From an uncultured Clostridia bacterium (GTDB lineage: Bacteria; UBA6262; WVXT01): 64,000 bases of DNA. The stretch is taken from the NCBI GenBank assembly GCA_964403285.1, contig CAYOFG010000001.1, forward strand, positions 22,183 to 86,182. The letters run 5' to 3'. Numbering within the stretch: the stretch's first letter is position 1; each line of letters begins with the position of its first letter. This document shows positions 17,244-38,142 of the stretch, piece by piece. Both the position numbers and the translations under genes were made by a program. A model generated the notes under the pieces. That model searched no databases, was not told where the DNA came from, and was given only the letters and a program-made list of their open reading frames with translations.

Positions 17244-17541
17244 ATTTTGGCTCCTTTATCTTATGTTTTTCACCAAATACAATTGAGCAAACAAATTCAA
17301 CAGAGTCATAGTTCTTTTATGCGCATATATCATTTCCTATAAGTCCACATCACCCGAAATTCAGAAGAATATCTACCTTCCCCGTCTCTTAGCCAGAATT
17401 GATCAGAGGATGGTAACATTTCAGAAATACTAACAGCACCGTTTTATACCAAGTCATTCTTTGGAATATTATGTTGTTAATTTCTCTCCAACCATGCGTA
17501 AGGGAAACCCTGTGTTCTCGCAGTAGTTATTACCCTTCTTA

Positions 17542-21634: not shown

Positions 21635-22575
21635 ATAAAAGGGTTAGTGCCAATAATTGTGCCTTCAGACAGACTATATTTTTTTCTCTTTAAAATTATT
21701 CTATCTTGAGTGGTAATCCCGGAAATAACCTCTATGTTCTTTTCATCCGAGATTCCCAGACTTACGCGCCTCTTTAAAGGTTCTTTGCTATTGCCCTGCC
21801 CAAGCAACACGTAATTTTGCCCTTTTTCCTTATACACCGCCTCCGTCGGGATGACTAAAATATTCTCCTTGTCCTGCTGGATAAAGTCCACAGAGGTATT
21901 CATACCCGAACGCAAAAACTTGGGCACTTCTTCGGGCTTCAAATCTACTTCGTAGATAGTGACATTGTTAACGGTTTTGGATTCATAATAGATGTGTTCA
22001 ACCGTAGCTTTTATTTTGGTATCCGGATAGGCATCGAGAGTAATAATCGCTTTCATATCCTTAGTGATTTTGCTGATATCCGTTTCATCAACCTGTGCCC
22101 GCATAATCAGATGGTCGGATAATACTACCACTGCATCCGTGGTAGTGACCATCTGTCCGGGCTGGATAGTGGCCACAATGACCTCGCCGTCAATTGGCGC
22201 CGGTAACGGTATAGGCCGATAGATCTCCTCCCAGTATTTTAAAGACTCTTCTCCTTTGGCTCTGGCAGTATTCAATAAAGCTGCCCTTTCGGTTGAGTTC
22301 ATCCAAGCCAGAATTTGCCCGGTTTTTACCTTATCTCCTTCCTGGACTAAAATTTTTTCAATTCTACCGTTAACCGGCGGTTTTACTTCCAACCGGTTTT
22401 TGGGAAGGACCGGGCCAGTACATGATATAAAGGTCTGGATAGAGCTGACAACTGGCGTTATCTCTTGCATAACTTCATCAGAGGGCCTCTTTTGCTTCAT
22501 CCGTGTTATAGCTACGCCAGCGATAATCAAAATGACCATAGCAATAAAAAATAATTTTAATTTTTTACTTCGCAT
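21613..22575 (-). CDS. macA: Periplasmic adaptor / membrane fusion protein (HlyD/MacA family)
   Basis: The start is probably the internal MRSKKLKLFFIAMVILIIAG, preceded by an AAGGAGAG RBS. One TM anchor and the coiled-coil/lipoyl-like motifs of RND/MacA adaptors are present. Confidence 0.6.
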   Translation of the reverse strand: MRSKKLKLFFIAMVILIIAGVAITRMKQKRPSDEVMQEITPVVSSIQTFISCTGPVLPKNRLEVKPPVNGRIEKILVQEGDKVKTGQILAWMNSTERAALLNTARAKGEESLKYWEEIYRPIPLPAPIDGEVIVATIQPGQMVTTTDAVVVLSDHLIMRAQVDETDISKITKDMKAIITLDAYPDTKIKATVEHIYYESKTVNNVTIYEVDLKPEEVPKFLRSGMNTSVDFIQQDKENILVIPTEAVYKEKGQNYVLLGQGNSKEPLKRRVSLGISDEKNIEVISGITTQDRIILKRKKYSLSEGTIIGTNPFMWWRRKK

Positions 22576-23860
22576 ATTCCAATGTCTCTCCTTTCGCGTG
22601 AATCCAGGCTGCCTCAGCAAGCAAGGCATTTGCCTGAGAATTCAGGTAAGTTTTTTTGGCCGTCACCAAATCATTCTGAATAATAATCCAGTTATCAAAG
22701 GTAATAAAACCTGCTGAATACTCTGCCTCTGCTATCTTTGAGCGTTCCTCAGCGGCATTAAGCAATTCCCGCCTCACTTCCACTGTTTCCACTGCATCCT
22801 GTAATGCCACCCAAGTCTGCTCTAAGTTTACTACCACGCTGTCCCAGGTGCTTCTGGCATTGGCCTCGGCTTGATTGTAAACAGCTTGGGCTTTGGATAC
22901 CTGGGCAAGCAGCAAACCGCCTTCAAATATCGGCAGGGTCAAACTCAAGCCCAAACTATAATTGTTGTTTCGTGGCGGCCACGACGAACTTGTTCTATTG
23001 GCTCCAGCTTCACCGGAAAGCTGCGGAGCAAAGTCGGCATAGGCGGATTTAATATCAAAAAAGGCAGCATTTTTCTTAGCAAAAGCCTGCAGTAAAGAAG
23101 GATTATTTTGAGCCAATACCTCCAAGTCTGGCTTATCTTTAGCTGCATCGTACACGGTAAAATCTGCCTTTACCGACATCGGCTTAAATTCCTTACGCCC
23201 CATTTCTTTACTTAATTGCCTTTGCACCAGGCTAACATCTCTTTCCGCCTGTGCGAGTTCAAAATTTGCCTGGGAAATATTTGCTTCTGCAGTCAATAAA
23301 GCGCCTTTGTGCTCCAGACCAGACTCATAACGGAGGGCAATTAATTCAAGACTGTCTCTTCTGATTTTCACAATGTCTTCAGCCACGCGGATTAACTCCT
23401 GGGCCTTTAATAAATTAATAAATGCGGTGCGTAAATTAAGCCTTACCTGGCTTGAAGTAAAGCGATAATTCTGCTGGGCAACTTTGATATTTTCTAAAGC
23501 GGCTTTCACATTATTTATTTTTTTGAAGCCGCCAAATATCAGCTGTGTACCAGAGACGCCGTATGTGTAAGTATCTGTCGTGGTGCGTGTAGTGGAACCT
23601 GTAGTGGTATTAGTAACGCTCGTGCCTGCCGTTGAGGCATCCAGGTTACTGTCGATTTGCGGATACAACCCGCTTGCGGTTATGGCTTTATCAGCTTTTT
23701 GTTGGTTAACATTCTCCTGCGCCGAGATTAAATCCGGGTGATTTTGGGCAGCTTCTCTGATACAATCTTGCCAAGTAAGCACTTCCCCGGCGATTCCCTT
23801 AGTAAGAGTAACGCATAAAAATAATAAAAATATGAAAAAAATCCTACAGTATTTGTACAT
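22565..23860 (-). CDS. TolC-like outer membrane efflux protein
   Basis: A signal peptide is followed by two repeated alpha/beta halves with conserved coiled-coil segments typical of the OEP family. Its ATG overlaps the upstream CapK-like stop (ATGA arrangement). Confidence 0.6.
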   Translation of the reverse strand: MYKYCRIFFIFLLFLCVTLTKGIAGEVLTWQDCIREAAQNHPDLISAQENVNQQKADKAITASGLYPQIDSNLDASTAGTSVTNTTTGSTTRTTTDTYTYGVSGTQLIFGGFKKINNVKAALENIKVAQQNYRFTSSQVRLNLRTAFINLLKAQELIRVAEDIVKIRRDSLELIALRYESGLEHKGALLTAEANISQANFELAQAERDVSLVQRQLSKEMGRKEFKPMSVKADFTVYDAAKDKPDLEVLAQNNPSLLQAFAKKNAAFFDIKSAYADFAPQLSGEAGANRTSSSWPPRNNNYSLGLSLTLPIFEGGLLLAQVSKAQAVYNQAEANARSTWDSVVVNLEQTWVALQDAVETVEVRRELLNAAEERSKIAEAEYSAGFITFDNWIIIQNDLVTAKKTYLNSQANALLAEAAWIHAKGETLEYAK

Positions 23861-25278
23861 TATCTACTCACCCAGCCTGATGATTTCCCTTTATCATCAA
23901 TCGTTGAAACTTTTCCGACTTCGTCTATGTGTGTTTTAGCGAATTTAGAAATAACCATTTTGTGTTTATTTAATACTAAAGAGATATCTGAAACAACCTC
24001 TACCTTTACTTTCACTATTTGATAAAGGCCTTTATCACTCAAAATATTACCGATTGCCTCCTCTACCTGTTTAGTTAATTGTTTTCCTCCTTCACTCGCG
24101 ACTATCTTAACTCTTAAAAAAGCGTTTTCTTCCTGAATGACCCGGAATTTTTCTAAACCAGGTATTTTAAAATTAAAAAGAATGGGGTCGATTACTTCGT
24201 AATCCCCATTTTCTTTATCAACCCAAATGATATCCCCTTCTCTACCTAAAATTTTTCCAATTACTGCCAGAGTAGAACCACACGGACATTTTGTCGTTGA
24301 CATCTGGACAATATCATTCAAACGGTACCGTATTATAGGTTGAATAAAATTCATTAAGTTCGTAATGACTGCTTTTCCAGGTTTTCCGGAAGAAACAGGA
24401 TTATCATTAATATCAAGAACCTCCAACACAAGTGCGTGAGAATAAACATGGAGAGAATGAAATTTGCATTCAGCAGCTATAGGCCCCGTCGCCTCCGTAG
24501 CAAAGTAACCACTATAGGGAACGCAATTAAATGCCTCAATTACAGCCTTCTTCATCTCTTCGGTAGGCATAAACCCTCCCCAAAAGACTTTCTTAGGCGA
24601 TATATGAAGGATATTTTTTAATTTCTGCTCGGCAAGAATGCTAAGTATCGAAGGATAACCTAATAGCATGTCTGGATTAAATTCATTTAATTCCTTCACT
24701 ATCACTGATATGGGTTTGCGAACCGAAAAATGCCGTACCTCTGCTAAGAAACGAGGTATACTTTTATAAAATACAGTAGAACCAACGTGCGGATTGTCGG
24801 TAAAAACACAGGCCATACGGGGCCTCTTCCTGAAAATATGCCTGATTAACTCGTAATTTTTGTATGATATTTTAGACGCTATTTCATAATCAAAACAGGA
24901 ATCATTAAAAACTGAAATCCATAAAAGACCACTCGTACCTGAGCTATGTATTACTGTATATTTCTTATTTATCTTAAAGGAATCCTCTTCTGTATTGCAA
25001 AAATCAATTAATTGACTTTTTGTAATATCCTTGGCTGTAAGAATGCTATCTAAATTATCCATAAAGGTTTTTTTATCAATCAGTGGAAGATTCTCTATCC
25101 TCATATCTTTATCAATATTTATATTGCGGTATAAATCTCCATAAAAGGTAGAGTTCTGTTTTGCGAATCTTAATAGCCGCAAGAATCTTTGTTGTTGAAT
25201 ATGTTGAATAGATGCGTAATTCCGCCGACTTACTGTATCGAAATCATAGATATATTTTAAAGTTCTTATTGCCCCCAT
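23860..25278 (-). CDS. Phenylacetate-CoA ligase-like adenylate-forming enzyme (CapK / F390-synthetase family)
   Basis: YTVIHSSGTSG is the AMP-binding P-loop analogue. RYRLNDIV matches the PaaK RYRTGD motif. The size and overall layout match the family. Confidence 0.5.
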   Translation of the reverse strand: MGAIRTLKYIYDFDTVSRRNYASIQHIQQQRFLRLLRFAKQNSTFYGDLYRNINIDKDMRIENLPLIDKKTFMDNLDSILTAKDITKSQLIDFCNTEEDSFKINKKYTVIHSSGTSGLLWISVFNDSCFDYEIASKISYKNYELIRHIFRKRPRMACVFTDNPHVGSTVFYKSIPRFLAEVRHFSVRKPISVIVKELNEFNPDMLLGYPSILSILAEQKLKNILHISPKKVFWGGFMPTEEMKKAVIEAFNCVPYSGYFATEATGPIAAECKFHSLHVYSHALVLEVLDINDNPVSSGKPGKAVITNLMNFIQPIIRYRLNDIVQMSTTKCPCGSTLAVIGKILGREGDIIWVDKENGDYEVIDPILFNFKIPGLEKFRVIQEENAFLRVKIVASEGGKQLTKQVEEAIGNILSDKGLYQIVKVKVEVVSDISLVLNKHKMVISKFAKTHIDEVGKVSTIDDKGKSSGWVSR

Positions 25279-25290
25279 ATATTCATCCTC

Positions 25291-27441
25291 TCAAAACTTT
25301 TTCCACATAGTCTTTGCTTTTTGGCTATGAAAAAAGATTTTTTCAGAAAACTTAACTTCTTTAGAATCAATAGCCAAAAAAGAATTAACTTTTCTCTCTT
25401 GGGATTCCAGCCAAAGTATTCTTCCCAGAAAATTTATTTTTCCTTCAAAATCAGCAAAGCGTTGACAATGGAGTTGATAGATAAAATAAACAATATTTCC
25501 ATCTATATTTATTGCTACGCCTAACTTTTCATTTTTCGAAGGAGCCCACTGCGTGCGTAATTCTTCTATCTCAACTTTAGGGCGCTTCCCTTTATATGGC
25601 AAAAGCAACGTGAAAAAGGTATCTGTGCTACGATTATGTTTTATGTATTTCAGAAAGGGAGAGACACAAGGCTCATTATTATAAATAACTCTACCTTTTG
25701 TAATTACCATTTCATCTATATCATCCTTATATAAAGGAACAACAAGTATCCCCACATTACCATTTTTCACATTCACCATCTTTTTTTTGCTATCTATCTC
25801 TACTTTTCCAGGGAAAAAGTGAAGTAAAAACTCATAGTGGTTGGCGAAAGCCCACTGTTCATTCTGTACCTTAAGTTCATCAATTATTATCCAGTATTTT
25901 CCCTTTATAAATAGAATCTTACGGTCGTGAATTAAGGGGTTCATCAGATTAAGATATCCTTCGTGTTTGGCCTCTACAAAATCAAAGACCTCTTTGGATA
26001 TCCATCTCTCTATTGAGACCCTTGGCCATCCACAGTTTTCCAGAAATGCTTTAACATTAGGATACAATGGTATTTTGTCAAGATCATAGTTAACGTCCCA
26101 TTGCCAGATATCTCGTAAGAGAATCTGGTCCCGATTATTAACTTGTATGGTATTATGCGCAGCAGTCCGTTTATACCAACCTGCGTAGTCATAATGGTCG
26201 TAAGAACAATTCCCCGAATCAACAATAATTGGCTTTCCATGGGCATAAAGCTCAAAACCTAACTTACCTGCATGAGTATGAAAGAACCATCCTGGATAGG
26301 CATCAAAAAATAATTGTTGGGTATCGTCTTTATCGCGCATAACCGCAAAACCAGCTTCAGGGAAAAGCTTTGTCTTTTTCATCTCTGATAGCATATGTTG
26401 TTTGTGTCTTCCTTGCCTTCGATTCTTAAGATTATCGGCAAAACGCAGAATGAACCCTAAAGTTGGTGAAAAAGGCAACATAGCCCATTTATTCTGAAAA
26501 AACATATGATTAGCGCATAATAAAAAAGTTTTTATATCTACAATGTAACTATCGTTAATTAAAGGAAGAGTTTCGTCTGGCCTGATAGCAGTCACAACAA
26601 AATCTATCATTTTCTTAGTAAAGTTCATTAATTTTCTGGATACCTTAATTCTATTTATCTTAGCAATAAGAATGGCATCCATGTACAGTTGTGCCACAGT
26701 TATATGATAACTTAACGACCCTTCTGCTTGAACACCGTCAGAAAAAAATTGACGTTTTATTTGTTTTTCTAAATTATCATATGCTAAATTCATCCAAACT
26801 TTAGCTTCTTTGAACTCTGGGAACACTATCCCCAAATGGGCTAAGGCAACTAACTCGTGAATCTGCCAGTTACCAAATTGATACCGTGGGTTAGAATTTA
26901 CAGCATACAAATATTTACCATGGGAAAAAATTGTCTCAATTATAAACAATCTATCATCGGATGAAATTTGCTTTGAATCTTTGAGAAAAAAGTACATCCA
27001 CAACAAATTAACCACACGAATTGCTGCATTCAAACTGCCCCATACAAGTCCAGTATGTTGATCTTTTACATCGGAAGAGAGAGGATTCTTCTTACACCAG
27101 TCGCGAAGCAAATATAAGCTTTTTCTTGCATATTGTGGCTTCCCATAGAGAAAATACATAAGACCTAAAGAATTCAAGAAACCCAGTCTATTCAACTTAG
27201 CAGATTTTTCAGTATTTCTGAACTTCCCCCAATCAATATCATCTCCAAAATGTGTCCATCCCCTCGTTACATTATGAAACATATATATCCTGCTATCCTC
27301 ACCAACTAAAAACGTATGCCGTAGAGCTGCATCGGCGACTTTCTTCTCAAAGGAAGATTCTCCCAAAGTGCGCAATGGTCTTTTTAGCAACGAGGCTCTT
27401 TCAGATTGAAAATAGAATGCTGGTTGCTTCCGCGGTGCCAA
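25291..27441 (-). CDS. Heparinase II/III-like family protein
   Basis: The C-terminal segment HTHAGKLGFELYAHGKPIIVDSGNCSYDH matches the Hepar_II_III signature (H.H.d.lsfel...G..l.vD.G...Y). Length is 716 aa. Confidence 0.5.
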   Translation of the reverse strand: MAPRKQPAFYFQSERASLLKRPLRTLGESSFEKKVADAALRHTFLVGEDSRIYMFHNVTRGWTHFGDDIDWGKFRNTEKSAKLNRLGFLNSLGLMYFLYGKPQYARKSLYLLRDWCKKNPLSSDVKDQHTGLVWGSLNAAIRVVNLLWMYFFLKDSKQISSDDRLFIIETIFSHGKYLYAVNSNPRYQFGNWQIHELVALAHLGIVFPEFKEAKVWMNLAYDNLEKQIKRQFFSDGVQAEGSLSYHITVAQLYMDAILIAKINRIKVSRKLMNFTKKMIDFVVTAIRPDETLPLINDSYIVDIKTFLLCANHMFFQNKWAMLPFSPTLGFILRFADNLKNRRQGRHKQHMLSEMKKTKLFPEAGFAVMRDKDDTQQLFFDAYPGWFFHTHAGKLGFELYAHGKPIIVDSGNCSYDHYDYAGWYKRTAAHNTIQVNNRDQILLRDIWQWDVNYDLDKIPLYPNVKAFLENCGWPRVSIERWISKEVFDFVEAKHEGYLNLMNPLIHDRKILFIKGKYWIIIDELKVQNEQWAFANHYEFLLHFFPGKVEIDSKKKMVNVKNGNVGILVVPLYKDDIDEMVITKGRVIYNNEPCVSPFLKYIKHNRSTDTFFTLLLPYKGKRPKVEIEELRTQWAPSKNEKLGVAINIDGNIVYFIYQLHCQRFADFEGKINFLGRILWLESQERKVNSFLAIDSKEVKFSEKIFFHSQKAKTMWKKF

Positions 27442-27531
27442 GTAAGTTACTAACCCCCTCTCTCATGTTCATAAACTCTTTTCTAATTTATCAGTTAATT
27501 TCTCCATGCCTGACCAATCCCTTTTCAAAAT

Positions 27532-28767
27532 CTAAATTAACTGTTGTTTCCTTAGGCACTCTATTGCTGTAGTTACACCCAGGAATTCATCAAAATATTT
27601 CTTTGTCTTGCTCAAAGACAACTTATACTTCTCATCATTAAATAAATTATTTATTTTCTCAAAGGCAACTTCTGGACTAGTTTCAAATGGAGGAAACAGT
27701 AGATCGCCCACTCCTAACTCTTTTACAATAAAAGCATTATATTCATTTTCTACCTGCGTAGGAATGACGAGATGGGGAACTTCCCATGCTATTGCTTGCG
27801 AGGTTGTATTGAGACCGCCATTGGAGACAAGGACTATATTATCCAACTGAAAAACAAGCTCAAAGGGTATAAACGATGATACTACAACATTATCTGCCCC
27901 GCATATAGTCTTGTGACTGCTGTCTTCTACCACTATGAGCTGAAACTCAGTATTAGTAAATAACTGCTTAACCTTCTCAACCCATTCTTCTGCTCCGCTC
28001 CTATCAATTATTAATCCCGATAGTCTCAAAATTATGGTTTTGCGATGAGGCTCAATATTCATATTGCGTCTGCGTAGTTGAATAGTCACTTCATTAGTTG
28101 GCTGTTTCTTAATTTTCCTGGGGAAGAACGGACCTACAATACGAAAATTCTCAGGTAATGAACAATCTCCGGCAAAGACAGGGACGGTACGCAGTAGAGT
28201 ACAAAACGGTGAAATATGTACTTGCATTAAATCAGCCAGTGCAGACATTTTCATATTCTTCGTGAGCCAATTTAGCTTCTTTGCCAACTGTTGAAATCTC
28301 AAATCAATCGATTCTGCAGAGATGGCATCGAGCCCTGACCTCTCAAAGACATCCTGAAGAAGAAATCTGTATCCAGGCAGATACCAGAGCTGGGCTAACA
28401 TAGAAACCCAAGGGATATTGTGTATATATGCTGAGATTCCTGCAGTTAATCTAAAATCACTGATCATAAGGTCAGGCTTAAATTCCTCTATTACCTCTTT
28501 CTCGTCGGATAGACATCTTTCAATATAGTCACCTTCGGTAATGGCCTCAAACAAGCCCCACTCAGATTCTGCCAAATAACAAATATCGAGCACCTCATAA
28601 ATTTCGTTAATACCGAAGTCTTTTGCTCTCTGCCGCTGGGAACTTCCAATGACAAAAGCAACAGTATGGCCTTCTGTATTCAATGCGTTACCTAACTGCA
28701 TGCAGTCATAAAGATGAGCTTCTCCGCACGATGCTGCCATAAATAGTATTCTCTTTTTGTCCCACAC
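27532..28767 (-). CDS. GT1-family (UDP-glycosyltransferase / MGT-like) glycosyltransferase
   Basis: The N-terminus ILFMAASCGEAHLYDCMQLGNALNTEGHTV is typical. The C-terminal donor-binding motif NIVLVSNGGLNTTSQAIAWEVPHLVIPTQVENEYNA matches (hGG.gT..eal..GvP.v..P...DQ..NA). Confidence 0.65.
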   Translation of the reverse strand: MWDKKRILFMAASCGEAHLYDCMQLGNALNTEGHTVAFVIGSSQRQRAKDFGINEIYEVLDICYLAESEWGLFEAITEGDYIERCLSDEKEVIEEFKPDLMISDFRLTAGISAYIHNIPWVSMLAQLWYLPGYRFLLQDVFERSGLDAISAESIDLRFQQLAKKLNWLTKNMKMSALADLMQVHISPFCTLLRTVPVFAGDCSLPENFRIVGPFFPRKIKKQPTNEVTIQLRRRNMNIEPHRKTIILRLSGLIIDRSGAEEWVEKVKQLFTNTEFQLIVVEDSSHKTICGADNVVVSSFIPFELVFQLDNIVLVSNGGLNTTSQAIAWEVPHLVIPTQVENEYNAFIVKELGVGDLLFPPFETSPEVAFEKINNLFNDEKYKLSLSKTKKYFDEFLGVTTAIECLRKQQLI

Positions 28768-28783
28768 TTATGTGCCCTCACTT

Positions 28784-30010
28784 TTATATAATAGTTACTT
28801 CTCTCGTAAGATAAGTCAACATATCATATCCATCCCAAACAACGTCAAAGAGATTTAATGCCTGTCCAATTCCAACTATACGGTCTATGCCATGGCCACC
28901 TAGTTGCCAGGCAAATTCTTTCAGCTCATTTCCAGAGAACCCATACACAGCAAGCGTTTGATCTTTGAAGGTTATCAGCTCAAGAACATCCATTAAATTC
29001 GGTTTTTCTGTTTCTAGAAAGACTCCACCTCCGCTATGGAGTTCACGTAACTTCTTTTCAAACTTCTGGATATGAACTCTATAGGGTAAATCTGTTCCTG
29101 CAGTTGAAAGTTTGTCTGCCAGGCCTTCAGCGGCATATCTATATCCTGTAATCATCCGATCTATACCAACTCCTCCTTCCCAATCAATTTTTCTCTGACA
29201 TACAATTTTTTTAAGGGCTGGCCAGAATCGGCTTTTGGCTCTATTTATATGTTCTTGTTCACCTATCCAAAAAATCAATCTCGGCGAAGCACATGCTTTC
29301 TGATTTAATACAAAAGCGTCAGTGAAGAATTTTTTTGAAAGTGTTTCAAGCTCTTCTTCAGATGCATTCAAAACCGCATCAGCCTTAAGGGCGGCCATAG
29401 AGAACCTATCTGCAAACACAAGTTCAATGGCCCTGGGAGGTAAAGGGATAGTTCTGATTTGTCTTATAGTTTCATCGCCACCCCAAATTACTCGCACGTG
29501 GCAATACTGAGATAATTCCTTAGTAATGGCCTCTTCATGACCATAACTTATCACCATGCTTCTCTCTCGAATTGCTTTAAAACGCTCCTGTTCTAAAATT
29601 GAGTTTAGCATATCGAGAAGTAGCTTAATTTGTGTGCTTCTTTTCTGAGAGAGACGAATTATATTAATATTACCTACTAGCAGTGATAAAAACCATGAAT
29701 AGATACACACGGAGTCGACATTTGAAGAAGGAAAATGCAGAACTACTCCCCGTGGCAGCCAAATTTTGCCCTGGCGTTTTGATTCATAATACTGATATAT
29801 CTCCTTCAGGTTTCTTTCACACAGCCAGTGTGCCAATGCTGACGCCTCTATATATGAAATAAGTTCCTTATTACTCATAATGGAATTTGAGACCTCTTGT
29901 ATAAATGCCAAGCATAAAGGTTCAAACGGTCTCATTGGTTTAGCTCGAGTAACCCGCCCAAGCAATTCTTGCCAATCTCTCTCTCTTTCCTTAGGTAGTA
30001 AGATTTCCAT
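28784..30010 (-). CDS. LuxC-family acyl-CoA (acyl-protein) reductase
   Basis: VLHFPSSNVDSV, VRVIWGGDETIRQI and NQKACASPRLIFWIG align with Vibrio LuxC HLLAGNVPLSG, VIVAWGGPDAI and YDQRACFSAQNIYYMG. I placed the start at the internal MEILLPK to limit overlap with the upstream gene, but this is uncertain. Confidence 0.55.
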   Translation of the reverse strand: MEILLPKERERDWQELLGRVTRAKPMRPFEPLCLAFIQEVSNSIMSNKELISYIEASALAHWLCERNLKEIYQYYESKRQGKIWLPRGVVLHFPSSNVDSVCIYSWFLSLLVGNINIIRLSQKRSTQIKLLLDMLNSILEQERFKAIRERSMVISYGHEEAITKELSQYCHVRVIWGGDETIRQIRTIPLPPRAIELVFADRFSMAALKADAVLNASEEELETLSKKFFTDAFVLNQKACASPRLIFWIGEQEHINRAKSRFWPALKKIVCQRKIDWEGGVGIDRMITGYRYAAEGLADKLSTAGTDLPYRVHIQKFEKKLRELHSGGGVFLETEKPNLMDVLELITFKDQTLAVYGFSGNELKEFAWQLGGHGIDRIVGIGQALNLFDVVWDGYDMLTYLTREVTII

Positions 30011-31121
30011 AAGTTCCTTTTCTATTATCGTAATCATAAGCATATGTGTCGCTACATCCACGAAGTTCTGCCGCAGGCATTCGGCCGTGGACCTGAAAAT
30101 ATTTTCCCTTCCGTCCGCAAGGACAATCATCTTCGCCCAAAACCGTTCCCAGGTCTTCTGTTAACACACTATGCCCAGGATAACTTCGGGCTAAGAGACT
30201 AAGTACTTGTATAAGCCCTTTGCGACCTTTTGGGAGAGGCTCAAGAGAAACTAAATCACGGATAATTATATCTGCAAAATCAGGAGCGTGCAGGCATTTT
30301 TTTTCGCACTCAAGGAAAACAGCCCCTAACGCCTCCACCATCGTATAAAAATTGTATATTCTCTTAACACCGAACTGTTCACTCAATTTCAGTTTGTATG
30401 TTTCAGTGTCCACGGCACTCTCCTCAAGTTTTTTCCAACCCCCAGTATGGATAATTATGCTATTCTCCAAATCTAAGTGCCGTTTCTTCTCAACAAAGGG
30501 CAGATATAAATGCTCCCAAATCATAAAAGTAAAACCAAATAAAACAACCCTTTCTCCACAGTGTTTTTTAAGAAAAGCATCCAATTCTTTCCACTTAATA
30601 TTCAATGAGTCATCGAGCAAGAATAGATGGTCGCTGCTAAGAGTTAGCATGCCATATAAAGCGACATCACGCGCTTTTAAATTGAATTTATTTTGAACCA
30701 GGCTCACATTATCAATTAAAATCATAGGGAGTTTCTTTTCACCAATACAAGAGGATATTACAGATCTAAAACCTTTGGCTTGTAATATAGATGTTTCCTT
30801 ATCCATAAAAATATACGAGGGAACCTGAAATGTTGTACCACTTGATGACAATATTCTTACTATTGAGTCCAGGGAGACGCTTCGAAATTTATGGCTTTTA
30901 AACAAGCGCGCTGGTAACATAGGCACATCCTTTAAATTGCCTGTCGAAGTTAGTGAAATTGGTAATGCTTCTATTATCCGTTTATACGGTTGGCAGTGAT
31001 CCCGGTGTTCAAATGTGAGCTCCCATAGTAAATCATCAAGAAGTTTCTGTTTTTCTCCTGCATTGAGACGATAGGGGTTATTAGTAAAAAGGTACTCAAT
31101 GTTAGTCCACGAAATGGGCAT
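29991..31121 (-). CDS. LuxE-family acyl-protein synthetase
   Basis: VPMLPARLFKSHKFRSVSLDSIVRILSSSGTT matches the LuxE hallmark LPLLPARLFKEHKLLSV...SSGTTG. The C-terminal CPCGRKGKYFQVHGRMPAAELRGCS matches LuxE CPCGRNG...GRAG...KGCA. Confidence 0.65.
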   Translation of the reverse strand: MPISWTNIEYLFTNNPYRLNAGEKQKLLDDLLWELTFEHRDHCQPYKRIIEALPISLTSTGNLKDVPMLPARLFKSHKFRSVSLDSIVRILSSSGTTFQVPSYIFMDKETSILQAKGFRSVISSCIGEKKLPMILIDNVSLVQNKFNLKARDVALYGMLTLSSDHLFLLDDSLNIKWKELDAFLKKHCGERVVLFGFTFMIWEHLYLPFVEKKRHLDLENSIIIHTGGWKKLEESAVDTETYKLKLSEQFGVKRIYNFYTMVEALGAVFLECEKKCLHAPDFADIIIRDLVSLEPLPKGRKGLIQVLSLLARSYPGHSVLTEDLGTVLGEDDCPCGRKGKYFQVHGRMPAAELRGCSDTYAYDYDNRKGTYGNLTT

Positions 31122-31135
31122 CTTTTTCTTCCTAT

Positions 31136-32323
31136 TTAATCAGAGTTTAGATATTCCAAAATACATCCTGCTACAACAGCAACGCCAAGAGGAAGCACAT
31201 CTTCATCTAAATCGAAAAAAGGGCTATGAAGAGGATAAACTATTCCTTTTTTTCTATTACGAATTCCTATTGAAAAAATAACCCCTGGAACTTCTCGAAA
31301 AAAGTAACCAATATCTTCGCCTTCAAAGAAAGGATATTTGAAGTTAAATATGTTTTTGGACCCGAGGAGTCTTCTCCCTACATCAGCTACTATGCCGTTC
31401 AATTGAGGATTATTTACAACAGACGAATAGAAAGGGATGAATCGAATCTCACACTGCGCTCCATATCCTCGACAAATAGCACGTAGTGTCTTTTTAATTT
31501 TACCCACTACATTCCTGCGGGTAATACTATCGAGGGTTCTTATCGTACCTTTTAGTCTTACACGATCAGGAATTACATTACTTGCTGTTCCTCCGTGAAT
31601 TTCTCCTATTGAAATGACAACCGGCACACATGGATTTTGCTTTTGAGGAACAATAAACTGAAGGGCCTCTACAACTTTTGCTGTAATATAAATTGTATCT
31701 ACTGTCTCCCAGCGTTGGGCAACATGTCCTCCTTTGCCAATAATGGATATTTCGAAGTCATCTACATTAGCAGTAACAATACCGCGACGTATCCCTATTT
31801 TACCCGCATCAAGAAATGGACTTAAGTCAAAACCAAATACCGAATCAACCTTCGGGTTCTTTAAGGCTCCTGCAGAAATCATTGCTTGTGCTCCACCAGA
31901 GCTTTCTTCATTTGGCTGAAAGATAAACTTCACCTGCCCTTTCAATTCCTCGCGAATTTTACCTAATAATGAAGCAACTCCTAAAACGATTGCCATCTTC
32001 CCATCATGGCCACATGCATGCATAACGCCAGGAACTTTAGAAGCATACTTCTTTTTAGTTCTTTCCTGAATAGGCAATGCATCCATATCCGACCTAATAA
32101 CAACGGTTTTCCCTTTTTTTCTTCCTTTAAGAAGAGCAACTACGCCTGTCCTTGCAACTTTCTCTTTTACCTTGAGACCCGCTCGCTTTAGTTCTTTGGC
32201 TATTAATTTAGCAGTTTTTACTTCTTGAAATCCTAATTCGGGATAAGAATGGATTTGTCTTCTTATCTTGATAACTTCAGACTTAAGTTTAAGAGATTGC
32301 TTTAGTAAATTATCTAACTCCAT
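31136..32323 (-). CDS. M20D-family amidohydrolase (N-acyl-amino-acid amidohydrolase / aminoacylase-like)
   Basis: The N-terminus IRRQIHSYPELGFQEVKTAKLIAKEL and the metal-binding HACGHD region are characteristic of M20D peptidases such as the hippurate hydrolase family. Confidence 0.65.
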   Translation of the reverse strand: MELDNLLKQSLKLKSEVIKIRRQIHSYPELGFQEVKTAKLIAKELKRAGLKVKEKVARTGVVALLKGRKKGKTVVIRSDMDALPIQERTKKKYASKVPGVMHACGHDGKMAIVLGVASLLGKIREELKGQVKFIFQPNEESSGGAQAMISAGALKNPKVDSVFGFDLSPFLDAGKIGIRRGIVTANVDDFEISIIGKGGHVAQRWETVDTIYITAKVVEALQFIVPQKQNPCVPVVISIGEIHGGTASNVIPDRVRLKGTIRTLDSITRRNVVGKIKKTLRAICRGYGAQCEIRFIPFYSSVVNNPQLNGIVADVGRRLLGSKNIFNFKYPFFEGEDIGYFFREVPGVIFSIGIRNRKKGIVYPLHSPFFDLDEDVLPLGVAVVAGCILEYLNSD

Positions 32324-32553: not shown

Positions 32554-35500
32554 TTAATCTTTAATAGACCGCAATAATTCTACTACTTCCCTCTTTTTTA
32601 TTTCTGCACCAATCTCCCCAAATATTTTTTCGGCCTCACTCAGACTATCCTTAGCACTGCTCCATTGTGTCAAATCCATATTAATTTTTGCCATTTGCTC
32701 ATAGAACCATCCTTTAAGTAAAGGATTGTCTGTTTCTTCAGATAATTCTAACACTTCTTTCAAAATATTCTGTGCTTTTTCAAATTCCTTCTTTCTTCTC
32801 ATTATTTCTGAACTTAAAAGATATATCCTTGCCTGAGAAACAACAGGAGTATCCTCGAGTTTTTGGTTTAAGAACTCTTCGGCTCTGCTAAGAATCAACT
32901 GCGCCTGCTCAATATCATCTAACTCAATGTACATTTCAGCCAAAAATCCCATTGCCTCAGTAGTAGAGATGAGATTTGATTCAGTGGCTCGTTCAACAGC
33001 TTGTTTCATCTGGCTAATGCCTTCTTCTCTCTTGCCCTGCACAAACTTAAGATAAGCCTTAAACATCTCTCCCTGCTGAATTATATAACTTGAACCGGTT
33101 CGCTGTCCTAAAGTGTACAGTTTCTCCGCAGACTCCATAGCCTTGTCATAACTATGTAATAATATTTCTATTCTTGTCCGATAACAGTAATACCACATTT
33201 CTGTAGATGCTGGCCTACCTAACTTTCTACTCATCTCTTGTGCTATATCGCTTTCTTTTTGGAATTCTTTGCCCATTCCTCTCCAACTTAACCATTCCCA
33301 ATCTAAACAGCGTAACCACCAGACTAAATCTAGGAAATTTTCTTTCTCATTATAACGAAGGCCGCGTGCAGCAAAATCACGGTCAAAATTTTTTCCTAAA
33401 ACCACATTAGGAAGGTTCAAAAAATAAAAGTAAGTCCCGTAGACATATTTGTAAAACCAATCGGTTAAACCTACGTAACGCTCAGCGATATCCATATTTT
33501 CAAAAGCATGTTTACCTCGTTTAATTACATCTTTTGTTCGCCCAAGGTAAACTAAAGTGGGAAAATACCCCGCAACTACAGCTGAATAACCTAAACCATT
33601 CATATCGGGAAGATAATCGTCAACTCGGTCAATTAACTCCAACGACCTTTTATAACTACCCAGGAAAAATTCAGCCAAGGAACCCCATCCATGAACTCGG
33701 ACCATAAATAAAATAATTGTGCCAAAATCTTTATCAATTTTTGCTTTTGGTGGTTGCTTAGTTAACTTTTCCTTAATCTTAAGGCCGGTCCTTTTCGGCA
33801 ACATATCCACTATTTTAAAAACAATGCGCATCAGTTTTACTACTCGCTTGACATTTATAAGGCGATTCAACTCTTGAAACTGGCGCTCGCAGACCTCTGC
33901 ACAATACCCAGGGTCAGTATATATAGCAGTATCCTCCACTCTATCTCGAATGTGGAACATCACTGTTTTCTTATTGGGATACTCGATTGTCTCAACTATT
34001 TCTAGCGCCTCTGCCCATGATTTAGTTGCTCTGAAGAAGTCTCTAATCTTCCACCCTACGTCGCCAGCTTTAATTAAGTACTCTGCAGCCTTGGTTTTGT
34101 TTAAACCACGACTAAAATGGTAGGCCAACTCATTAATAACAGATTCTTTATCCTCGGCGAAACGCGCTTCTATGAAAGTAGCTGCTTTTTCATGCATTTC
34201 TTTCCTGGATGCCTCCTCTAATTGAGCGTAGAGGGTTTCTCTGACACGGTCGTGAGTAAAGGCATATTGTTTTTCTTCGATTTTCATAAATTGGCGTTCG
34301 ATTAACTCGTCTAAAACACCAAAGAGTTGTTCATCTCCTAAACCACTTAATGTTTTGAGAAGAGATAAATCGAGATTTCTGGCTACCACTGCCGCCACTC
34401 TTGCAATCTTCAACACTTCAGGTCTAAGGAGTTTTAAACGGCGAAGGATAGTGGCTTCTATTGAGGTAGGTAACTCTATTGCGCTTATATCTGCAGGTAA
34501 AATCCAACATCCGCGCTCCAATTTTAGCTGTTCTTCCTCAATTAATGCCCTCATTACTTCACTGACAAAAAAGGGATTACCTCCAGTAGCAGTATATATA
34601 TGCTCAGTGAAATCTTCAGTTAATTCAATACGGCCTAACATCTTTGCAATCAAAATATCGACATTATCCGAATCTAAAGGCAATAACTTCATTTCATTGG
34701 TGAGATTTTCTTCAACGGTTTGAAAAATACGGCTTGTAGGTTCAACTTCATCGTCGCGGAAGGAAGATAAAATCATAATAGGATATTCTCGTAGTTCTCG
34801 AATACAAACGTTAAGCAAATCTATGGAAGGCGTATCTGCCCAATGTAAATCTTCAATATAAATAACTAACGGTTGCACTTTTGAAACTTCTTTTAACCAT
34901 CCAGCAACCGATTCAAATAAACGCGCCTTCTCCGCATATTCTTCTAATTGTGGAGCAGGCTCGTACCCTTTATTTCTTAGTTCAGGTATAACTTTAACCA
35001 GTACTGAACCATATTTATCTATCACATCTTTTGAGGTTAATGGTAAAAGAGGTTTGAGTGCTTTAGCTACAGGCTGATACGCAGTCATACCCTGTGCAAA
35101 ACAATTGCCTTGCACAAAAGGAACCTCGTCTAATTGGACATATAGCTGGAACTCTTGAATTAAGCGGGATTTTCCAGTTCCTGCTGGAGCAGCAATAAAA
35201 ACACTCTTGCCTTTACCTTCCTTTGTAAGCCTAAAAAGTTCTTTTAATTCCCGCATCTCTCCTTCACGGCCTATCAGTTCACTACAATTGAGATAACTTT
35301 TCCTCTGTTCTAAAGTCTCTATAGATACTTCCTCAGCACTGAGTTTGACTAAATCGTTAATTAATTCCGCTGTTGTCTGGTAACGATTATCTGGGTCCTT
35401 AGCAATGAGTCTTAATATGACTTCTTCCAGTTCTTCAGGGATATTTTTTCTAATGTTACAAGGAGGCAGAGGAGGTTCTTGAATATGTTTTTTTATAATC

Positions 35501-36258
35501 TCTAAAATAGTCTTTCCCAAAAATGGAAGCTTTCCAGTGGTTAATTCATAAGCCATTATACCTAAGGAATATAAATCAGAACGGGCATCAATTATACCAC
35601 CTTTGGTAACTTCTGGAGGCATGTAAAGAGGGGTACCGGCGATTTCACCATTGCTGGGCAATCCCATCTGGTCCATCAAACCAAAATCCATCATTTTCAC
35701 ATTGCCTTCAGGAGTAATCCGGATATTATCTGGTTTTATATCTCTATGAACCAAAAGTCTTGAATGGATGAAATTTAACACCTGGGCAGTTTGGATAAGG
35801 ATTCGGTAAACTTCAGGAATGTTCAATTGTCTTTCTTTTAAGATATCGCGCAATTCTCTTCCGCACACGATCTCCATTGTAATATAATCGTCGCCATTTT
35901 CTAATACACCAAAATTGTATACATGAACGGTACTAGGGTGCTTTAATTTAACCATAGTACGAAATTCCTGTTTGAAGTGGAGTTCCACTTCAGTTGTAGA
36001 AGTGGCTGTAGCGGTTATCCTTACTCTTTTTGTCTGGGCAGCTGTTGTAGCGAAAATATCATCTCCCACCAGTGGCTCCTTGACCTCAGTCCCTGTCACA
36101 GTCGAGCTCGTATCCGTACCTGCTACTTCCCGGAAAAATTGCTTCAAAGCAACCTCTCGGTGTTCTAATGTATCATATACTTTCCATATTATACCCATTC
36201 CTCCTGCGCCAAGTTTTTCTAAAACTTTATACCGATTTGCTAATAAAGTTTCTTTCAT
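32554..36258 (-). CDS. Multidomain signalling protein: Ser/Thr protein kinase, AAA/STAND-type P-loop NTPase, TPR repeats
   Basis: Hanks kinase motifs LGAGGMG, VALKQF, HRDIKPDNI, DFGL, PPE and DLYSLG are present. A P-loop FIAAPAGTGKSRL and Walker B VIYIEDLHWAD follow. A long C-terminal helical-repeat region includes GEMFKAYLKF and AQLILSRAEEFL. A roughly 45 aa Thr/Ser/Ala-rich insertion sits between the beta3 Lys and alphaC. Confidence 0.75.
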   Translation of the reverse strand: MKETLLANRYKVLEKLGAGGMGIIWKVYDTLEHREVALKQFFREVAGTDTSSTVTGTEVKEPLVGDDIFATTAAQTKRVRITATATSTTEVELHFKQEFRTMVKLKHPSTVHVYNFGVLENGDDYITMEIVCGRELRDILKERQLNIPEVYRILIQTAQVLNFIHSRLLVHRDIKPDNIRITPEGNVKMMDFGLMDQMGLPSNGEIAGTPLYMPPEVTKGGIIDARSDLYSLGIMAYELTTGKLPFLGKTILEIIKKHIQEPPLPPCNIRKNIPEELEEVILRLIAKDPDNRYQTTAELINDLVKLSAEEVSIETLEQRKSYLNCSELIGREGEMRELKELFRLTKEGKGKSVFIAAPAGTGKSRLIQEFQLYVQLDEVPFVQGNCFAQGMTAYQPVAKALKPLLPLTSKDVIDKYGSVLVKVIPELRNKGYEPAPQLEEYAEKARLFESVAGWLKEVSKVQPLVIYIEDLHWADTPSIDLLNVCIRELREYPIMILSSFRDDEVEPTSRIFQTVEENLTNEMKLLPLDSDNVDILIAKMLGRIELTEDFTEHIYTATGGNPFFVSEVMRALIEEEQLKLERGCWILPADISAIELPTSIEATILRRLKLLRPEVLKIARVAAVVARNLDLSLLKTLSGLGDEQLFGVLDELIERQFMKIEEKQYAFTHDRVRETLYAQLEEASRKEMHEKAATFIEARFAEDKESVINELAYHFSRGLNKTKAAEYLIKAGDVGWKIRDFFRATKSWAEALEIVETIEYPNKKTVMFHIRDRVEDTAIYTDPGYCAEVCERQFQELNRLINVKRVVKLMRIVFKIVDMLPKRTGLKIKEKLTKQPPKAKIDKDFGTIILFMVRVHGWGSLAEFFLGSYKRSLELIDRVDDYLPDMNGLGYSAVVAGYFPTLVYLGRTKDVIKRGKHAFENMDIAERYVGLTDWFYKYVYGTYFYFLNLPNVVLGKNFDRDFAARGLRYNEKENFLDLVWWLRCLDWEWLSWRGMGKEFQKESDIAQEMSRKLGRPASTEMWYYCYRTRIEILLHSYDKAMESAEKLYTLGQRTGSSYIIQQGEMFKAYLKFVQGKREEGISQMKQAVERATESNLISTTEAMGFLAEMYIELDDIEQAQLILSRAEEFLNQKLEDTPVVSQARIYLLSSEIMRRKKEFEKAQNILKEVLELSEETDNPLLKGWFYEQMAKINMDLTQWSSAKDSLSEAEKIFGEIGAEIKKREVVELLRSIKD

Positions 36259-36514
36259 TTTTTGCTCTTCCTGTTTTTAAGTCTAATTTAAAGGCTTGAA
36301 AAAATTTCTCCTCAGCCCCTTTCTCAGACTTTATGCCAGAAACATCAACTCTCATAGCCATAACAATTTTTATAAAAGTATTAAGTATGCAGCTCCGGGA
36401 TGGTTTCTTCCCCCCAGAAAACCTCATCTCCCGGGCTATTCCATCAATGAACTTAATTTGCTTCTTATTCACTCCAATATTAGCTATAATTAAAATTTTA
36501 TTCCGACTGTTCAT
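36227..36514 (-). CDS. Small protein (95 aa), paralogue of 36529..36798
   Basis: It shares a core F..I..M..GG.K.P.S.I with its neighbour (FIDGIAREMRFSGGKKPSRSCILNTF versus FYNLSISMKINGGYKLPKSYIIRSL). There is weak resemblance to AbrB/MazE swapped-hairpin or RHH DNA-binding cores. It overlaps the kinase start by 32 nt. Confidence 0.35.
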   Translation of the reverse strand: MNSRNKILIIANIGVNKKQIKFIDGIAREMRFSGGKKPSRSCILNTFIKIVMAMRVDVSGIKSEKGAEEKFFQAFKLDLKTGRAKNERNFISKSV

Positions 36515-36528
36515 TTGCTAAATTACCG

Positions 36529-36798
36529 TTACTTTTCCCTCACTCTTCTGAGCTCATTAAGAGATTGAAGAATCCTCTTTTCTAAATCAATCTTGGTTTT
36601 AACGTTCTTCAAGTTTATCTTTAGTCTCATAAAGGCATTAACTAGACTTCGAATAATGTATGATTTAGGTAACTTATAGCCGCCATTTATTTTCATTGAA
36701 ATGCTCAGATTATAAAACCAGTCATTCGTCTTTTTATCCAGAAAAATGGGGATACGGAACAGGTTTTTTTCAACATCAGATCTAAACCGCTTATTCAT
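36529..36798 (-). CDS. Small protein (89 aa), paralogue of 36227..36514; possible AbrB/MazE- or RHH-like DNA binder
   Basis: MKINGGYKLPKSYIIRSLVNAFMRL resembles the G-R/Y-x-x-I/L-P-K-x-I-R-x-L swapped-hairpin motif. It lies 20 nt downstream of the radical SAM gene stop. Confidence 0.35.
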   Translation of the reverse strand: MNKRFRSDVEKNLFRIPIFLDKKTNDWFYNLSISMKINGGYKLPKSYIIRSLVNAFMRLKINLKNVKTKIDLEKRILQSLNELRRVREK

Positions 36799-36818
36799 TT
36801 GTGTTTACCTCGCCATCT

Positions 36819-37829
36819 TTACTCAGCTCCGAAGACATTCTCATCATAGTCAACAGGAAATTCCTTTTTCCCCTCAAATAATTTAAGCAATTTGCTTCTC
36901 ATCTTGGGATCATTCATCGGACAATCACATCTATTTATATTTTCTCGTTCCATTTTGAAATAAGAACTACTCCACATTCTCTCAATTATGGTCTTTAAAT
37001 CTTCTTTTCGTATATTACCGAACCTAATAGGAACATAACAACAAGGTTGCACATCTCCATAAGCAGTAATAGCAACAACCCATCGCGTAACACTTGCGCA
37101 TACAAAAGGAACTGTCCCGTCGCACCACTCTTCCCAGAAAACAAAATTAGGCTCCAAAAGGGCCCGGAATTCTTCCATCTCATCTTTGGAAAGTCGAATC
37201 TCTTGATTGGTCCATCTTCCAACCATCATAGGAGTAAGAAGTCTGATTTTAAACACCCCTAAATCTTTTCCCAATTGAATGATTTTTTTTGTATCGCCAC
37301 TTTTAAGACTTTGCTTGGTAACCACGGTTGAAATTCCTACAGGGATTCCCAGCTCTACACAATTTTTAATCGCTTGAATAGCTTTATCCCAGGAACCTTC
37401 CATTCCTCGAAATTGGTCGTGGACTTTAGGATTACTACTATCTATACTCACCAGGAAAAAAGTTATCCCAGCCTCTTTTACTGCTTTAGCAAAACTTTTA
37501 TTAGCCAACTTAATTCCATTTGTATCAGCACGGGTAAAGAGGCCTTTTTGGGTTGAATACCGAAGAAGTTCTACAAAATCTCTATGTATTGTTGGCTCTC
37601 CTCCAAAAAAGTAAGCCACACCCAACCCACAGTCTTTTAATCGATCGAGAATTTTGCTCTTAACCTCTTCTGTTGTCAATAACTTTTCATTTTTCTTCTC
37701 AAACAAACCAACTCCACAGTGTTTACAACGACATTGACATGCGTAGGTTAAACTGATAAAAGCCCCTTTAACTTGGGCAAATTTTTTTATTCCTTGATAA
37801 CCCTCTAAATCTTCAAGTTTCACATTCAT
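36819..37829 (-). CDS. Radical SAM enzyme with SPASM/twitch C-terminal Cys cluster
   Basis: CQCRCKHC (Cx3Cx2C) lies near the N-terminus. The GGEPT glycine-rich SAM motif is present. The C-terminal cysteines are CDGTVPFVCAS...QPCCYVPIRFGNI...RCDCP. Confidence 0.7.
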   Translation of the reverse strand: MNVKLEDLEGYQGIKKFAQVKGAFISLTYACQCRCKHCGVGLFEKKNEKLLTTEEVKSKILDRLKDCGLGVAYFFGGEPTIHRDFVELLRYSTQKGLFTRADTNGIKLANKSFAKAVKEAGITFFLVSIDSSNPKVHDQFRGMEGSWDKAIQAIKNCVELGIPVGISTVVTKQSLKSGDTKKIIQLGKDLGVFKIRLLTPMMVGRWTNQEIRLSKDEMEEFRALLEPNFVFWEEWCDGTVPFVCASVTRWVVAITAYGDVQPCCYVPIRFGNIRKEDLKTIIERMWSSSYFKMERENINRCDCPMNDPKMRSKLLKLFEGKKEFPVDYDENVFGAE

Positions 37830-38107
37830 AAATATCTTTCTTGTAAATAATAAAATAAAAAACCGAACTGCTCTCTTGCAAAAGGCAGTTCGGCTAATAA
37901 GTTAATTAAAGACTTCTCTGCTATTTTTATAATTGGTTTCGGTAGCCCGGCCGTCATTCTCACTTTTTCCTTGCTGACCCGTAACTTTGCCGCGTCTCCT
38001 AAAGTCCACCAAACCGACTACGGAATCGCGCCCCGGGGCATCCCAAATAATGATTTACCGGGGGCCCCTACCTCTCGGTAGGTTTGCCTTTTCGTTCCAA
38101 CTTTTCT
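37830..38107 (-). promoter_or_regulatory. Structured ~280 nt 5' leader (candidate riboswitch or attenuator) of the radical SAM gene
   Basis: The leader lies between a consensus promoter and the terminator. Its 5' end is AAAAGGCAAACC followed by a GNRA-capped hairpin CUACCGAGAGGUAGG. A 7-bp GC helix GCCCCGG...CCGGGGC follows. A later element is GACGCGGCAAAG. Confidence 0.4.
37851..37893 (-). terminator. Intrinsic (rho-independent) terminator immediately upstream of the radical SAM start codon; a probable expression platform or attenuator
   Basis: The minus-strand RNA reads GCCGAACUGCCUUUUGCAAGAGAGCAGUUCGG followed by UUUUUUUAUUUUAUU, a 9-bp GC-rich stem with a U-tract. It ends about 20 nt before the ATG at 37829. 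Confidence 0.6.
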
Positions 38108-38113
38108 GTTTTA

Positions 38114-38142
38114 AGTATATCACAAAAGTTACATTTTGTCAA
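38114..38142 (-). promoter_or_regulatory. Sigma70-type promoter (TTGACA, 17 nt spacer, TATACT) driving the leader and radical SAM gene
   Basis: The minus strand reads cattTTGACAaaatgtaacttttgtgaTATACTtaaaacA. The -35 and -10 are perfect or near-perfect with a 17-nt spacer. The predicted TSS coincides with the start of the AAAAGGCAAACC motif. Confidence 0.55.

Follow-up and report, generated by a model that had tools for sequence, protein, structure and literature searches.

The window analysed here is the whole of a 64,000-nucleotide (nt) stretch from an uncultured Clostridia bacterium (GenBank assembly GCA_964403285.1, contig CAYOFG010000001.1). It carries on its minus strand a gene cassette in which a promoter and a conserved leader RNA precede the genes for a radical S-adenosylmethionine (rSAM) enzyme, for two small proteins that we call A and B, and for a giant Ser/Thr kinase. 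The rSAM gene (36819..37829, 336 aa) is followed by the genes of A (36529..36798, 89 aa), the A-type of an unnamed family, and of its partner B (36227..36514, 95 aa), the B-type paralogue. The last 32 nt of B (36227..36258) overlap the start of the kinase gene (32554..36258, 1234 aa), whose product combines Pkinase, AAA_16 (STAND) and MalT-like TPR (TPR_12/TPR_MalT) domains of Pfam. B is a true paralogue of A (BLASTP E 4e-7; 63 aa aligned at 21% identity), and both are real genes, conserved at the protein level in more than 60 loci; across 39 homologues the GG-K core is invariant and the S and I are almost invariant. A first-pass annotation had described the 336-aa rSAM with its CX3CX2C motif, the two paralogous small genes, a riboswitch-like control and the adjacent, overlapped kinase-STAND-TPR protein, and in these points it was right.

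The control region comprises a promoter, a conserved leader and a terminator. The promoter (38114..38142, minus strand) is of the sigma-70 type and near consensus, TTGACA-17 nt-TATACT with an extended -10 TG and 11 of 12 consensus matches, and its sequence is kept in all related loci. On its 3′ side lies a conserved leader of ~250 nt that resembles the aptamers of cyclic di-GMP-I (c-di-GMP-I, GEMM-I) riboswitches. The leader contains an intrinsic terminator hairpin with a 15-bp stem and a U-tract (37855..37895, minus strand), the presumed expression platform, which ends ~25 nt 5′ of the rSAM ATG. The aptamer-like domain (37931..38102, minus strand), delimited by Rfam match and by alignment to canonical aptamers, is made up of P1, a AAAGGCAAACC junction, a GNRA-capped P2, a GCAAA junction, P3 and CCGAA. 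In permissive (E-value) mode, Rfam model RF03167 (c-di-GMP-I-GGC) matches this domain end to end at 37937..38097 (26.4 bits, E 5.7e-4), and six related leaders give the same full-length match at 25–34 bits, with E-values down to 2e-4 in 57 kb. The model penalises an insertion of ~65–79 nt. In the window this insertion (37998..38065, minus strand, ~65 nt, after the P2 hairpin) is predicted to fold into a GC-rich hairpin followed by a second hairpin with a variable tip.

We compared the leader with canonical c-di-GMP-I aptamers that score 81 and 79 bits in two of the compared loci, L033 and L034 (L and P numbers denote the loci and homologous proteins compared). The leader aligns with both over P1, AAAGGCAAACC, the GNRA-capped P2, GCAAA, both P3 strands and CCGAA; all three have in common the pattern ACGG.UC...GA.GGCCGGG.U, and P1 of the leader differs from that of the canonical aptamers by a compensatory U-A to G-C change. 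All 11 distinct leaders are compatible with a GEMM-I-like structure that includes the terminator and two hairpins within the insert (97.8% of cells paired; 99.4% for helix 7, the terminator stem). The RNAalifold consensus departs from the GEMM-I fold in that the 5′ junction pairs with sequence just upstream of the terminator, a possible alternative pairing. We conclude that the leader most probably derives from a GEMM-I aptamer and carries an inserted domain, the terminator serving as expression platform; c-di-GMP or a relative is the putative ligand, and the switching direction is likewise putative. One related locus, L008 (6800-6978, upstream of rSAM-A-B), keeps promoter and terminator and has lost the whole aptamer-like core, which makes it a natural 'riboswitch-less' variant. 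The canonical c-di-GMP-I riboswitches of L033 (1381-1465) and L034 (1770-1854) stand before a 572-aa protein, with a REC-GGDEF gene on their upstream side and, further downstream, A-B and a PAS histidine kinase.

An alignment search with A and B returned 51 close homologues and 64 metagenome loci. Open reading frames were classed by separate hidden Markov models for A and B, and the count was made on loci whose sequence extends 330 nt or more beyond A: in 43 of 50 the paralogue lies directly after A, at gaps of −17 to +69 nt. The two are joined into single-chain A-B fusions in L003 and L019/P0095, and P0237 is an independent tandem fusion, unrelated and differently composed. With the upstream region of the window as nhmmer query, we found promoter, leader and terminator directly before A, without an rSAM, in six loci (L010, L013, L014, L016, L017, L018) and a partial leader before A in L007 and L015; the window, L001, L006 and L012 are the only places where it precedes an rSAM. 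Since the leader stands before A without an rSAM in at least six loci, the rSAM is an optional insert between leader and pair. The reverse also occurs, in that rSAM orthologues are found without A-B in L005, L070, L071 and L072; rSAM homologues are thus not always followed by the paralogue pair.

The neighbourhoods of the rSAM orthologues vary. L001 reads leader, rSAM, A, B, methyltransferase, B12-rSAM, kinase; L057 and L078 read A, B, rSAM, a second rSAM of ~610 aa, x, kinase; and L003 reads leader, ADC, B12-rSAM, hydrolase, fused A-B, rSAM, kinase, ThiF, glycosyltransferase (GT), rSAM, so that gene order is shuffled in L003 and L057. In L005 the rSAM is accompanied by LuxE/LuxC, a second copy and a methyltransferase, with neither A-B nor kinase. 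Most close loci have a homologous kinase within this string of genes. Distant A-B pairs, with 50–60% identity to A, lie in unrelated contexts: those of L060, L039 and L046 follow a ParB-methylase, a helix-turn-helix (HTH) protein and a large terminase, that of L037 a D5-like primase, those of L061 and L064 SMC, and that of L047 LeuRS. No rSAM relative was detected beside the distant pairs of these seven loci. The conserved unit is best explained as a regulatory cassette and not as an rSAM with its substrates. The trio of ParB_N-DNA methylase, HTH protein and large terminase (PHROG 38, E 4e-94) spans 4282-7851 in L060, 57-3343 in L039 and 702-2664 in L046, and points to carriage of some family members by phage-like or satellite elements.

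An exhaustive profile search extended the family to 461 cluster representatives (50% identity) at E≤1e-3, mostly of 75–110 aa. Scans of A and B against Pfam, NCBIfam and PHROGs gave no family match above threshold, and among 127 members scanned no Pfam domain covered the family region (none at E≤0.01). The family is unnamed, widespread and paired. In P0215 and P0249 the family domain is followed by a C-terminal PilZ domain. In P0226 (260 aa) a type IV prepilin N-methylation motif (…IKGFTLIELIVV…) follows it in the same frame, through either a true fusion or the joining of two neighbouring genes by gene calling. Conservation is even over 85–89 columns and peaks at the central GG-K...S-I turn, and 18 of 20 A-type proteins are free of Cys. 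An AlphaFold2 (AF2) monomer model of A built from 39 homologues (mean confidence, pLDDT, 84.5) predicts an unstructured N-terminal stretch of 21 residues and helices at 22-37, 45-59 and 69-88, with no beta-sheet. Among the readings of the small proteins offered by the first-pass annotation, a partner resembling the recognition element (RRE) of ribosomally synthesised and post-translationally modified peptide (RiPP) pathways was rejected because A and B are predicted to be helical, with no beta-sheet RRE-like fold for A, and AbrB/MazE-like DNA binders were rejected on the same prediction. A toxin-antitoxin pair was also rejected, since B is a paralogue of A and not toxin-like.

The motifs of the family run from a short strand of alternating hydrophobic residues through a first helix and a Gly-rich turn to a Ser/Thr N-cap and a second helix. 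This order led us to suspect a ribbon-helix-helix (RHH) fold, a fold that requires a dimer and would therefore explain the pairing and the fusions of A and B. Compared by hhalign with single RHH sequences, the family profile matches in register over the core the N-terminal domain of NikR (45%), a fragment of TTHA0139 (28%) and CopG (16%); six other RHH proteins gave no match, and 50 shuffled sequences used as controls never exceeded 2%. The 127-sequence family profile matches an RHH profile of NikR, a shallow one for which the homologue search returned only close relatives, at 48.8% (E 1.8e-4), with the strand, helices A and B and the turn between them all in register. When the family consensus was run against 24,736 Pfam models, RHH_1 came out on top, over positions 1-36 of 39 (E 0.036). 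An RHH-like DNA-binding heterodimer is the best-supported reading of A-B and, on this remote similarity, a moderately probable one. Of the DNA-binding folds named by the first-pass annotation, the RHH-like one is thus the one that stands, moderately supported by the in-register similarity, the pairing and the fusions, including those to PilZ, although all scores stay below family thresholds.

The rSAM itself matches Pfam Radical_SAM (E 5e-24) and SPASM (30.3 bits; cut-off 21.5). C31, C35 and C38 of the CX3CX2C motif are invariant in 18 orthologues, and exactly four more Cys are invariant in the same set: C157, the pair C244-X13-G-X4-C263, and C303. The full seven-Cys set of SPASM was not recovered, since CX2CX5CX3C is absent. 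Peptide maturases do not strictly need seven Cys, SkfB being a twitch enzyme. The arrangement points to a partial, 'twitch'-like SPASM domain with one auxiliary cluster. An RRE was sought without success: the cluster motif starts at residue 31, leaving no N-terminal extension, and neither A nor B has a PqqD or other Pfam match. The C-terminal SPASM/twitch cluster, first read as typical of peptide-modifying maturases, holds up as a domain with its score and four invariant Cys; the enzyme reaches no curated peptide-maturase subfamily. No other curated NCBIfam subfamily is reached either (best AhbD, 122 bits vs a cut-off of 500; further sub-threshold matches to NirJ2 and TIGR04053).

Its orthologue clade comprises ~23 clusters at 60–100% identity, below which identity drops to ~40%; the named orthologues are labelled Omnitrophota, plus one metagenome-assembled genome of Elusimicrobiota, and a scan of genome collections for relatives found 8 loci. 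Names borne by homologues at 60–66% identity would place the window in Omnitrophota. The best sequence match in the PDB is BlsE, followed by SkfB, PqqE and GDGT-MAS. BlsE is a sugar-nucleoside decarboxylase and GDGT-MAS a lipid enzyme. Two orthologues with 61–64% identity, P0014 and P0070, carry a fused N-terminal ThiS/MoaD-like domain that ends in AIAGG; a ThiF-like E1 gene lies directly downstream of both, and L003 has a ThiF as well. These are hints of a sulfur-carrier-dependent chemistry in the clade. The most economical reading would make the rSAM one tailoring enzyme of the putative glycan island that follows the kinase and is described below.

Several c-di-GMP links are independent of the leader: the PilZ fusions, L018, L019, L033 and an exporter of the window. 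L018 reads leader, A, B, a protein with REC and HD_5 domains, an ECF sigma factor and an exporter. In L019 an HD_5-type gene, with 52% identity to the HD_5 domain of L018, ends just upstream of the rSAM. In L033, A-B is preceded at ~2 kb by a REC-GGDEF gene and the canonical riboswitch and followed by a PAS histidine kinase. In the window, an ABC exporter (ABC_membrane and ABC_tran; 6021..8318, minus strand) bears a C-terminal HD_5 (HD-GYP-type) fusion, an unusual case of a putative c-di-GMP phosphodiesterase domain joined to a transporter.

From the gene anatomy, the conservation and fusions of the pair, the optional presence of the rSAM, the conservation of the leader with its GEMM-I resemblance and the contextual c-di-GMP links, we propose the following explanation. 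The cassette would consist of promoter, GEMM-I-like riboswitch with terminator, A-B and, usually, the giant STAND Ser/Thr kinase. A and B would be RHH-like subunits, each with an N-terminal strand, a helix, the GG-K-x-x-S turn, a second helix and an additional C-terminal helix, and would form an obligate A:B heterodimer that binds DNA as a transcription regulator. The leader would gate transcription of the cassette via terminator formation, presumably in response to c-di-GMP or a related dinucleotide. The overlapping stop and start codons would couple translation of B and the kinase, which would in turn make the kinase a plausible partner or modifier of A-B. The rSAM would be one of several interchangeable tailoring enzymes placed in the cassette across genomes, others being B12-rSAMs, methyltransferases, LuxE/LuxC, ThiS/ThiF and glycosyltransferases, and its substrate is probably some intermediate of the adjacent island, whether small molecule, sugar or lipid. 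To this account as a whole, with A-B regulators and kinase led by a c-di-GMP-type riboswitch, an optional rSAM, and a position at the head of a sugar-polymer island, we give somewhat more credence than doubt.

A number of results weigh against this explanation. The leaders score 25–34 bits against an Rfam gathering score of 59 for RF03167, and nothing in the window matches at gathering level; to our knowledge, the ligand of the GGC variant, the best clan match of the leader, is not established. In a covariation test on 11 leaders one pair changed on both sides, as happened likewise in shuffles; the test is uninformative because the 11 copies are 89% identical. The similarity of A-B to RHH proteins is sub-threshold throughout: hhalign probabilities lie below 50%, the consensus scores 14.5 bits with RHH_1 (PF01402), where gathering requires 20.5, and the loop between helices A and B is 5–6 residues longer than in classical RHH proteins. 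Sequence searches of the PDB with the 39- and 127-sequence profiles gave nothing significant (best RHH-like match TTHA0139, E 0.4), Foldseek of the A monomer model against PDB and BFVD gave no match at E<1, and a model of the A-B fusion, in which a beta-ribbon could have appeared, was built on a one-sided alignment and set aside for its low confidence (pLDDT 59.8). Finally, the rSAM adjoins A-B in eight close-clade loci, in either order, so that a functional link between the two is conceivable.

This adjacency is also where a RiPP-like or protein-modification module would begin, in which the rSAM, and elsewhere B12-rSAMs and methyltransferases, modifies A and/or B while the kinase-STAND protein and the MacB/HlyD/OEP genes serve regulation and export. 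SPASM/twitch rSAMs are often peptide maturases; the rSAM has sub-threshold NCBIfam matches to mycofactocin, PqqE, sactipeptide and nif11-class maturases, its PDB matches include SkfB and PqqE, and the B12-rSAM of L003 has sub-threshold matches to RiPP C-methyltransferases. Genes for an M20 peptidase and a MacB-type exporter follow downstream, and the AAA/TPR part of the kinase resembles, below threshold, a TOMM kinase/cyclase fusion protein. The association is facultative both ways, however, with at least six leader-A-B-kinase cassettes lacking the rSAM and four loci with rSAM lacking A-B, and it does not extend to the distant pairs. A and B, at 80–95 aa, look folded and evenly conserved, show neither a leader/core pattern nor a hypervariable core, and A is essentially free of Cys; the PilZ fusions in the family, an rSAM with no RRE and only a one-cluster auxiliary motif, and ThiS/ThiF partners that indicate small-molecule sulfur chemistry speak against such a module too. 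We consider it very unlikely, and the idea that the small proteins are precursors or substrates of the rSAM is not supported. The first-pass annotation had expected its module to fail if the small proteins belonged to a well-characterised DNA-binding family and the rSAM to a non-peptide-modifying subfamily; what was found goes half of this way, with a sub-threshold similarity to DNA binders and an rSAM in no curated subfamily.

Two further explanations leave the rSAM aside. The distant pairs directly after ParB-methylase/HTH/terminase genes or a D5-like primase, together with a cassette position just downstream of an RmuC gene and a tRNA gene with variable inserts (window, L001, L006, L013, L018), would suit a mobile-element DNA-binding pair, for instance a partition or centromere-binding, excisionase-like or nucleoid-associated pair of a tRNA-linked island, with no specific tie to rSAM, kinase or c-di-GMP; the small RHH proteins ParG and omega have such a role on plasmids. 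In the close clade, however, the same leader always precedes A-B, and overlapping codons usually couple the pair to the kinase; fusions to PilZ and neighbours of the HD-GYP and GGDEF types turn up repeatedly, and neither an integrase nor a partition ATPase was seen beside the pair in the window; we regard this explanation as unlikely. It is similarly improbable that A and B do not bind DNA and are helical adaptors or scaffolds, or kinase substrates or regulators that bind its TPR/STAND part. The translational coupling of B to the kinase and the frequent B-kinase overlap would suit such a role, as would the sub-threshold RHH similarity and the conserved (V/I)K(S/T)E after helix B, which could be a phosphosite. 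Most family members, as distant pairs, nevertheless lack a kinase of this type in their neighbourhood, L018 encodes a REC-HD_5 protein and an ECF sigma factor in its place, and the sole remote similarity found is to a DNA-binding fold.

Downstream of the cassette, the 230-nt gap after the kinase holds no promoter or terminator consensus. It is followed at 19649..32323 (minus strand) by genes for an M20 amidohydrolase, LuxE-like and LuxC-like proteins, a macrolide-type GT, a heparinase II/III-like protein, a PaaK/F390-like ligase and an OEP-HlyD-MacB exporter, and at 6021..19624 (minus strand) by a second rSAM/SPASM gene and genes for three GT2, GT4/GT1, DUF362, an alpha/beta-hydrolase, an ABC exporter and the ABC-HD_5 exporter. 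To judge by its gene content, this is an island for glycan or glycolipid biosynthesis and export. The second rSAM/SPASM gene (18719-19624, minus strand, 301 aa, SPASM E 2.9e-13) lies amid glycosyltransferases, directly after the MacB gene.

On the other side of the cassette, a gene with Schlafen/AlbA_2 and HATPase_c_4 domains (38378-39781, minus strand) lies between a tRNA gene (39888-39963, minus strand) and the leader. Between the end of this SLFN/AlbA_2-like gene and the cassette promoter we observed a perfect 26-nt inverted repeat (AATTCTGGGGACACAATACTTAATTA and its complement, window 38248-38273 and 38332-38357, 58-nt spacer), which may terminate the upstream gene, serve as a palindromic site for a protein or be the scar of a recombination. 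L001 and L013 have HAD, GH65 and GT4 genes at the same RmuC-tRNA position, and in L018 the leader lies within ~450 nt of the RmuC end; the position looks like a hypervariable insertion site beside a tRNA.

In its widest form, the explanation would make this large family of heterodimeric RHH-like proteins an unrecognised c-di-GMP output branch of Omnitrophota and other uncultured lineages; in the present clade its expression would be gated by an insertion-bearing GEMM-I riboswitch and its activity tuned by the co-translated kinase, so that second-messenger and phospho-signals together switch on a surface-glycan island. We put this forward as possible yet doubtful. The preferred explanation, if correct, would already provide a first functional hypothesis for a sizeable family of paired small proteins, as RHH-like heterodimers with a c-di-GMP link and with the natural fusions as an experimental handle, and it would mean that large inserted domains can hide GEMM-I riboswitches from Rfam thresholds, which matters for censuses of candidate phyla. 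A caution also follows for annotation: an rSAM/SPASM gene beside small open reading frames is insufficient for a RiPP call unless the association is checked across genomes.

Each component can be set against a known system. The leader matches the c-di-GMP-I (GEMM-I) riboswitches of clan CL00126 (RF01051, RF03167) in its P1/P2(GNRA)/P3 architecture and junction nucleotides, and many GEMM-I switches place an intrinsic terminator after the aptamer, as here; unlike canonical members, it has an additional domain of ~65 nt after P2, scores below gathering and matches the GGC variant best instead of the canonical model. The rSAM shares CX3CX2C, CX13GX4C and further Cys, consistent with one auxiliary cluster, with BlsE, BtrN, AhbD and NirJ, twitch/SPASM enzymes with non-peptide substrates, but its matches lie far below cut-offs and its clade has no characterised member. 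STAND Ser/Thr kinases of the PknK/MalT type, e.g. PknK of M. tuberculosis, act on transcription regulators. By domain layout the cassette kinase resembles them, with an N-terminal Pkinase, an AAA_16 NTPase and MalT-like TPRs, and differs in being coupled to a small-protein pair behind a riboswitch-like leader.

For A-B themselves, the RHH_1 superfamily of CopG, Arc, MetJ and NikR (PF01402) offers the same R-V-x-I-x-L strand, LxxLDxL helix A, Ser/Thr N-cap and hydrophobic helix B, and its need for a dimer fits the pairing and the fusions; A-B depart from it in their sub-threshold scores, in a longer loop with the invariant GG-K, in an added conserved C-terminal helix with (V/I)K(S/T)E, and in that they would form a heterodimer of paralogues where RHH_1 proteins form homodimers. 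CdbA and CdbB of Myxococcus xanthus are small paralogous RHH proteins (67 and 86 aa, 51% identical) that share one operon, interact and have a part in c-di-GMP signalling; CdbA is a nucleoid-associated protein to which c-di-GMP binds directly, and homologues have been reported only from Myxococcales (PMC7156744). We compared residues 1-56 of CdbA, taken from PDB 6SBW, with both family profiles by hhalign; homology to A-B was rejected at 0.1% for each. A-B resemble CdbA/CdbB as side-by-side small paralogues with a c-di-GMP connection, an RHH fold being only proposed for A-B, and differ in their lower mutual identity (21% vs 51%) and their additional C-terminal helix. For CdbA the c-di-GMP link is direct binding, whereas for A-B it runs via the leader RNA, the PilZ fusions and neighbouring enzymes. 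By analogy, and not by membership of one family, CdbA/CdbB would be the nearest functional precedent for A-B.

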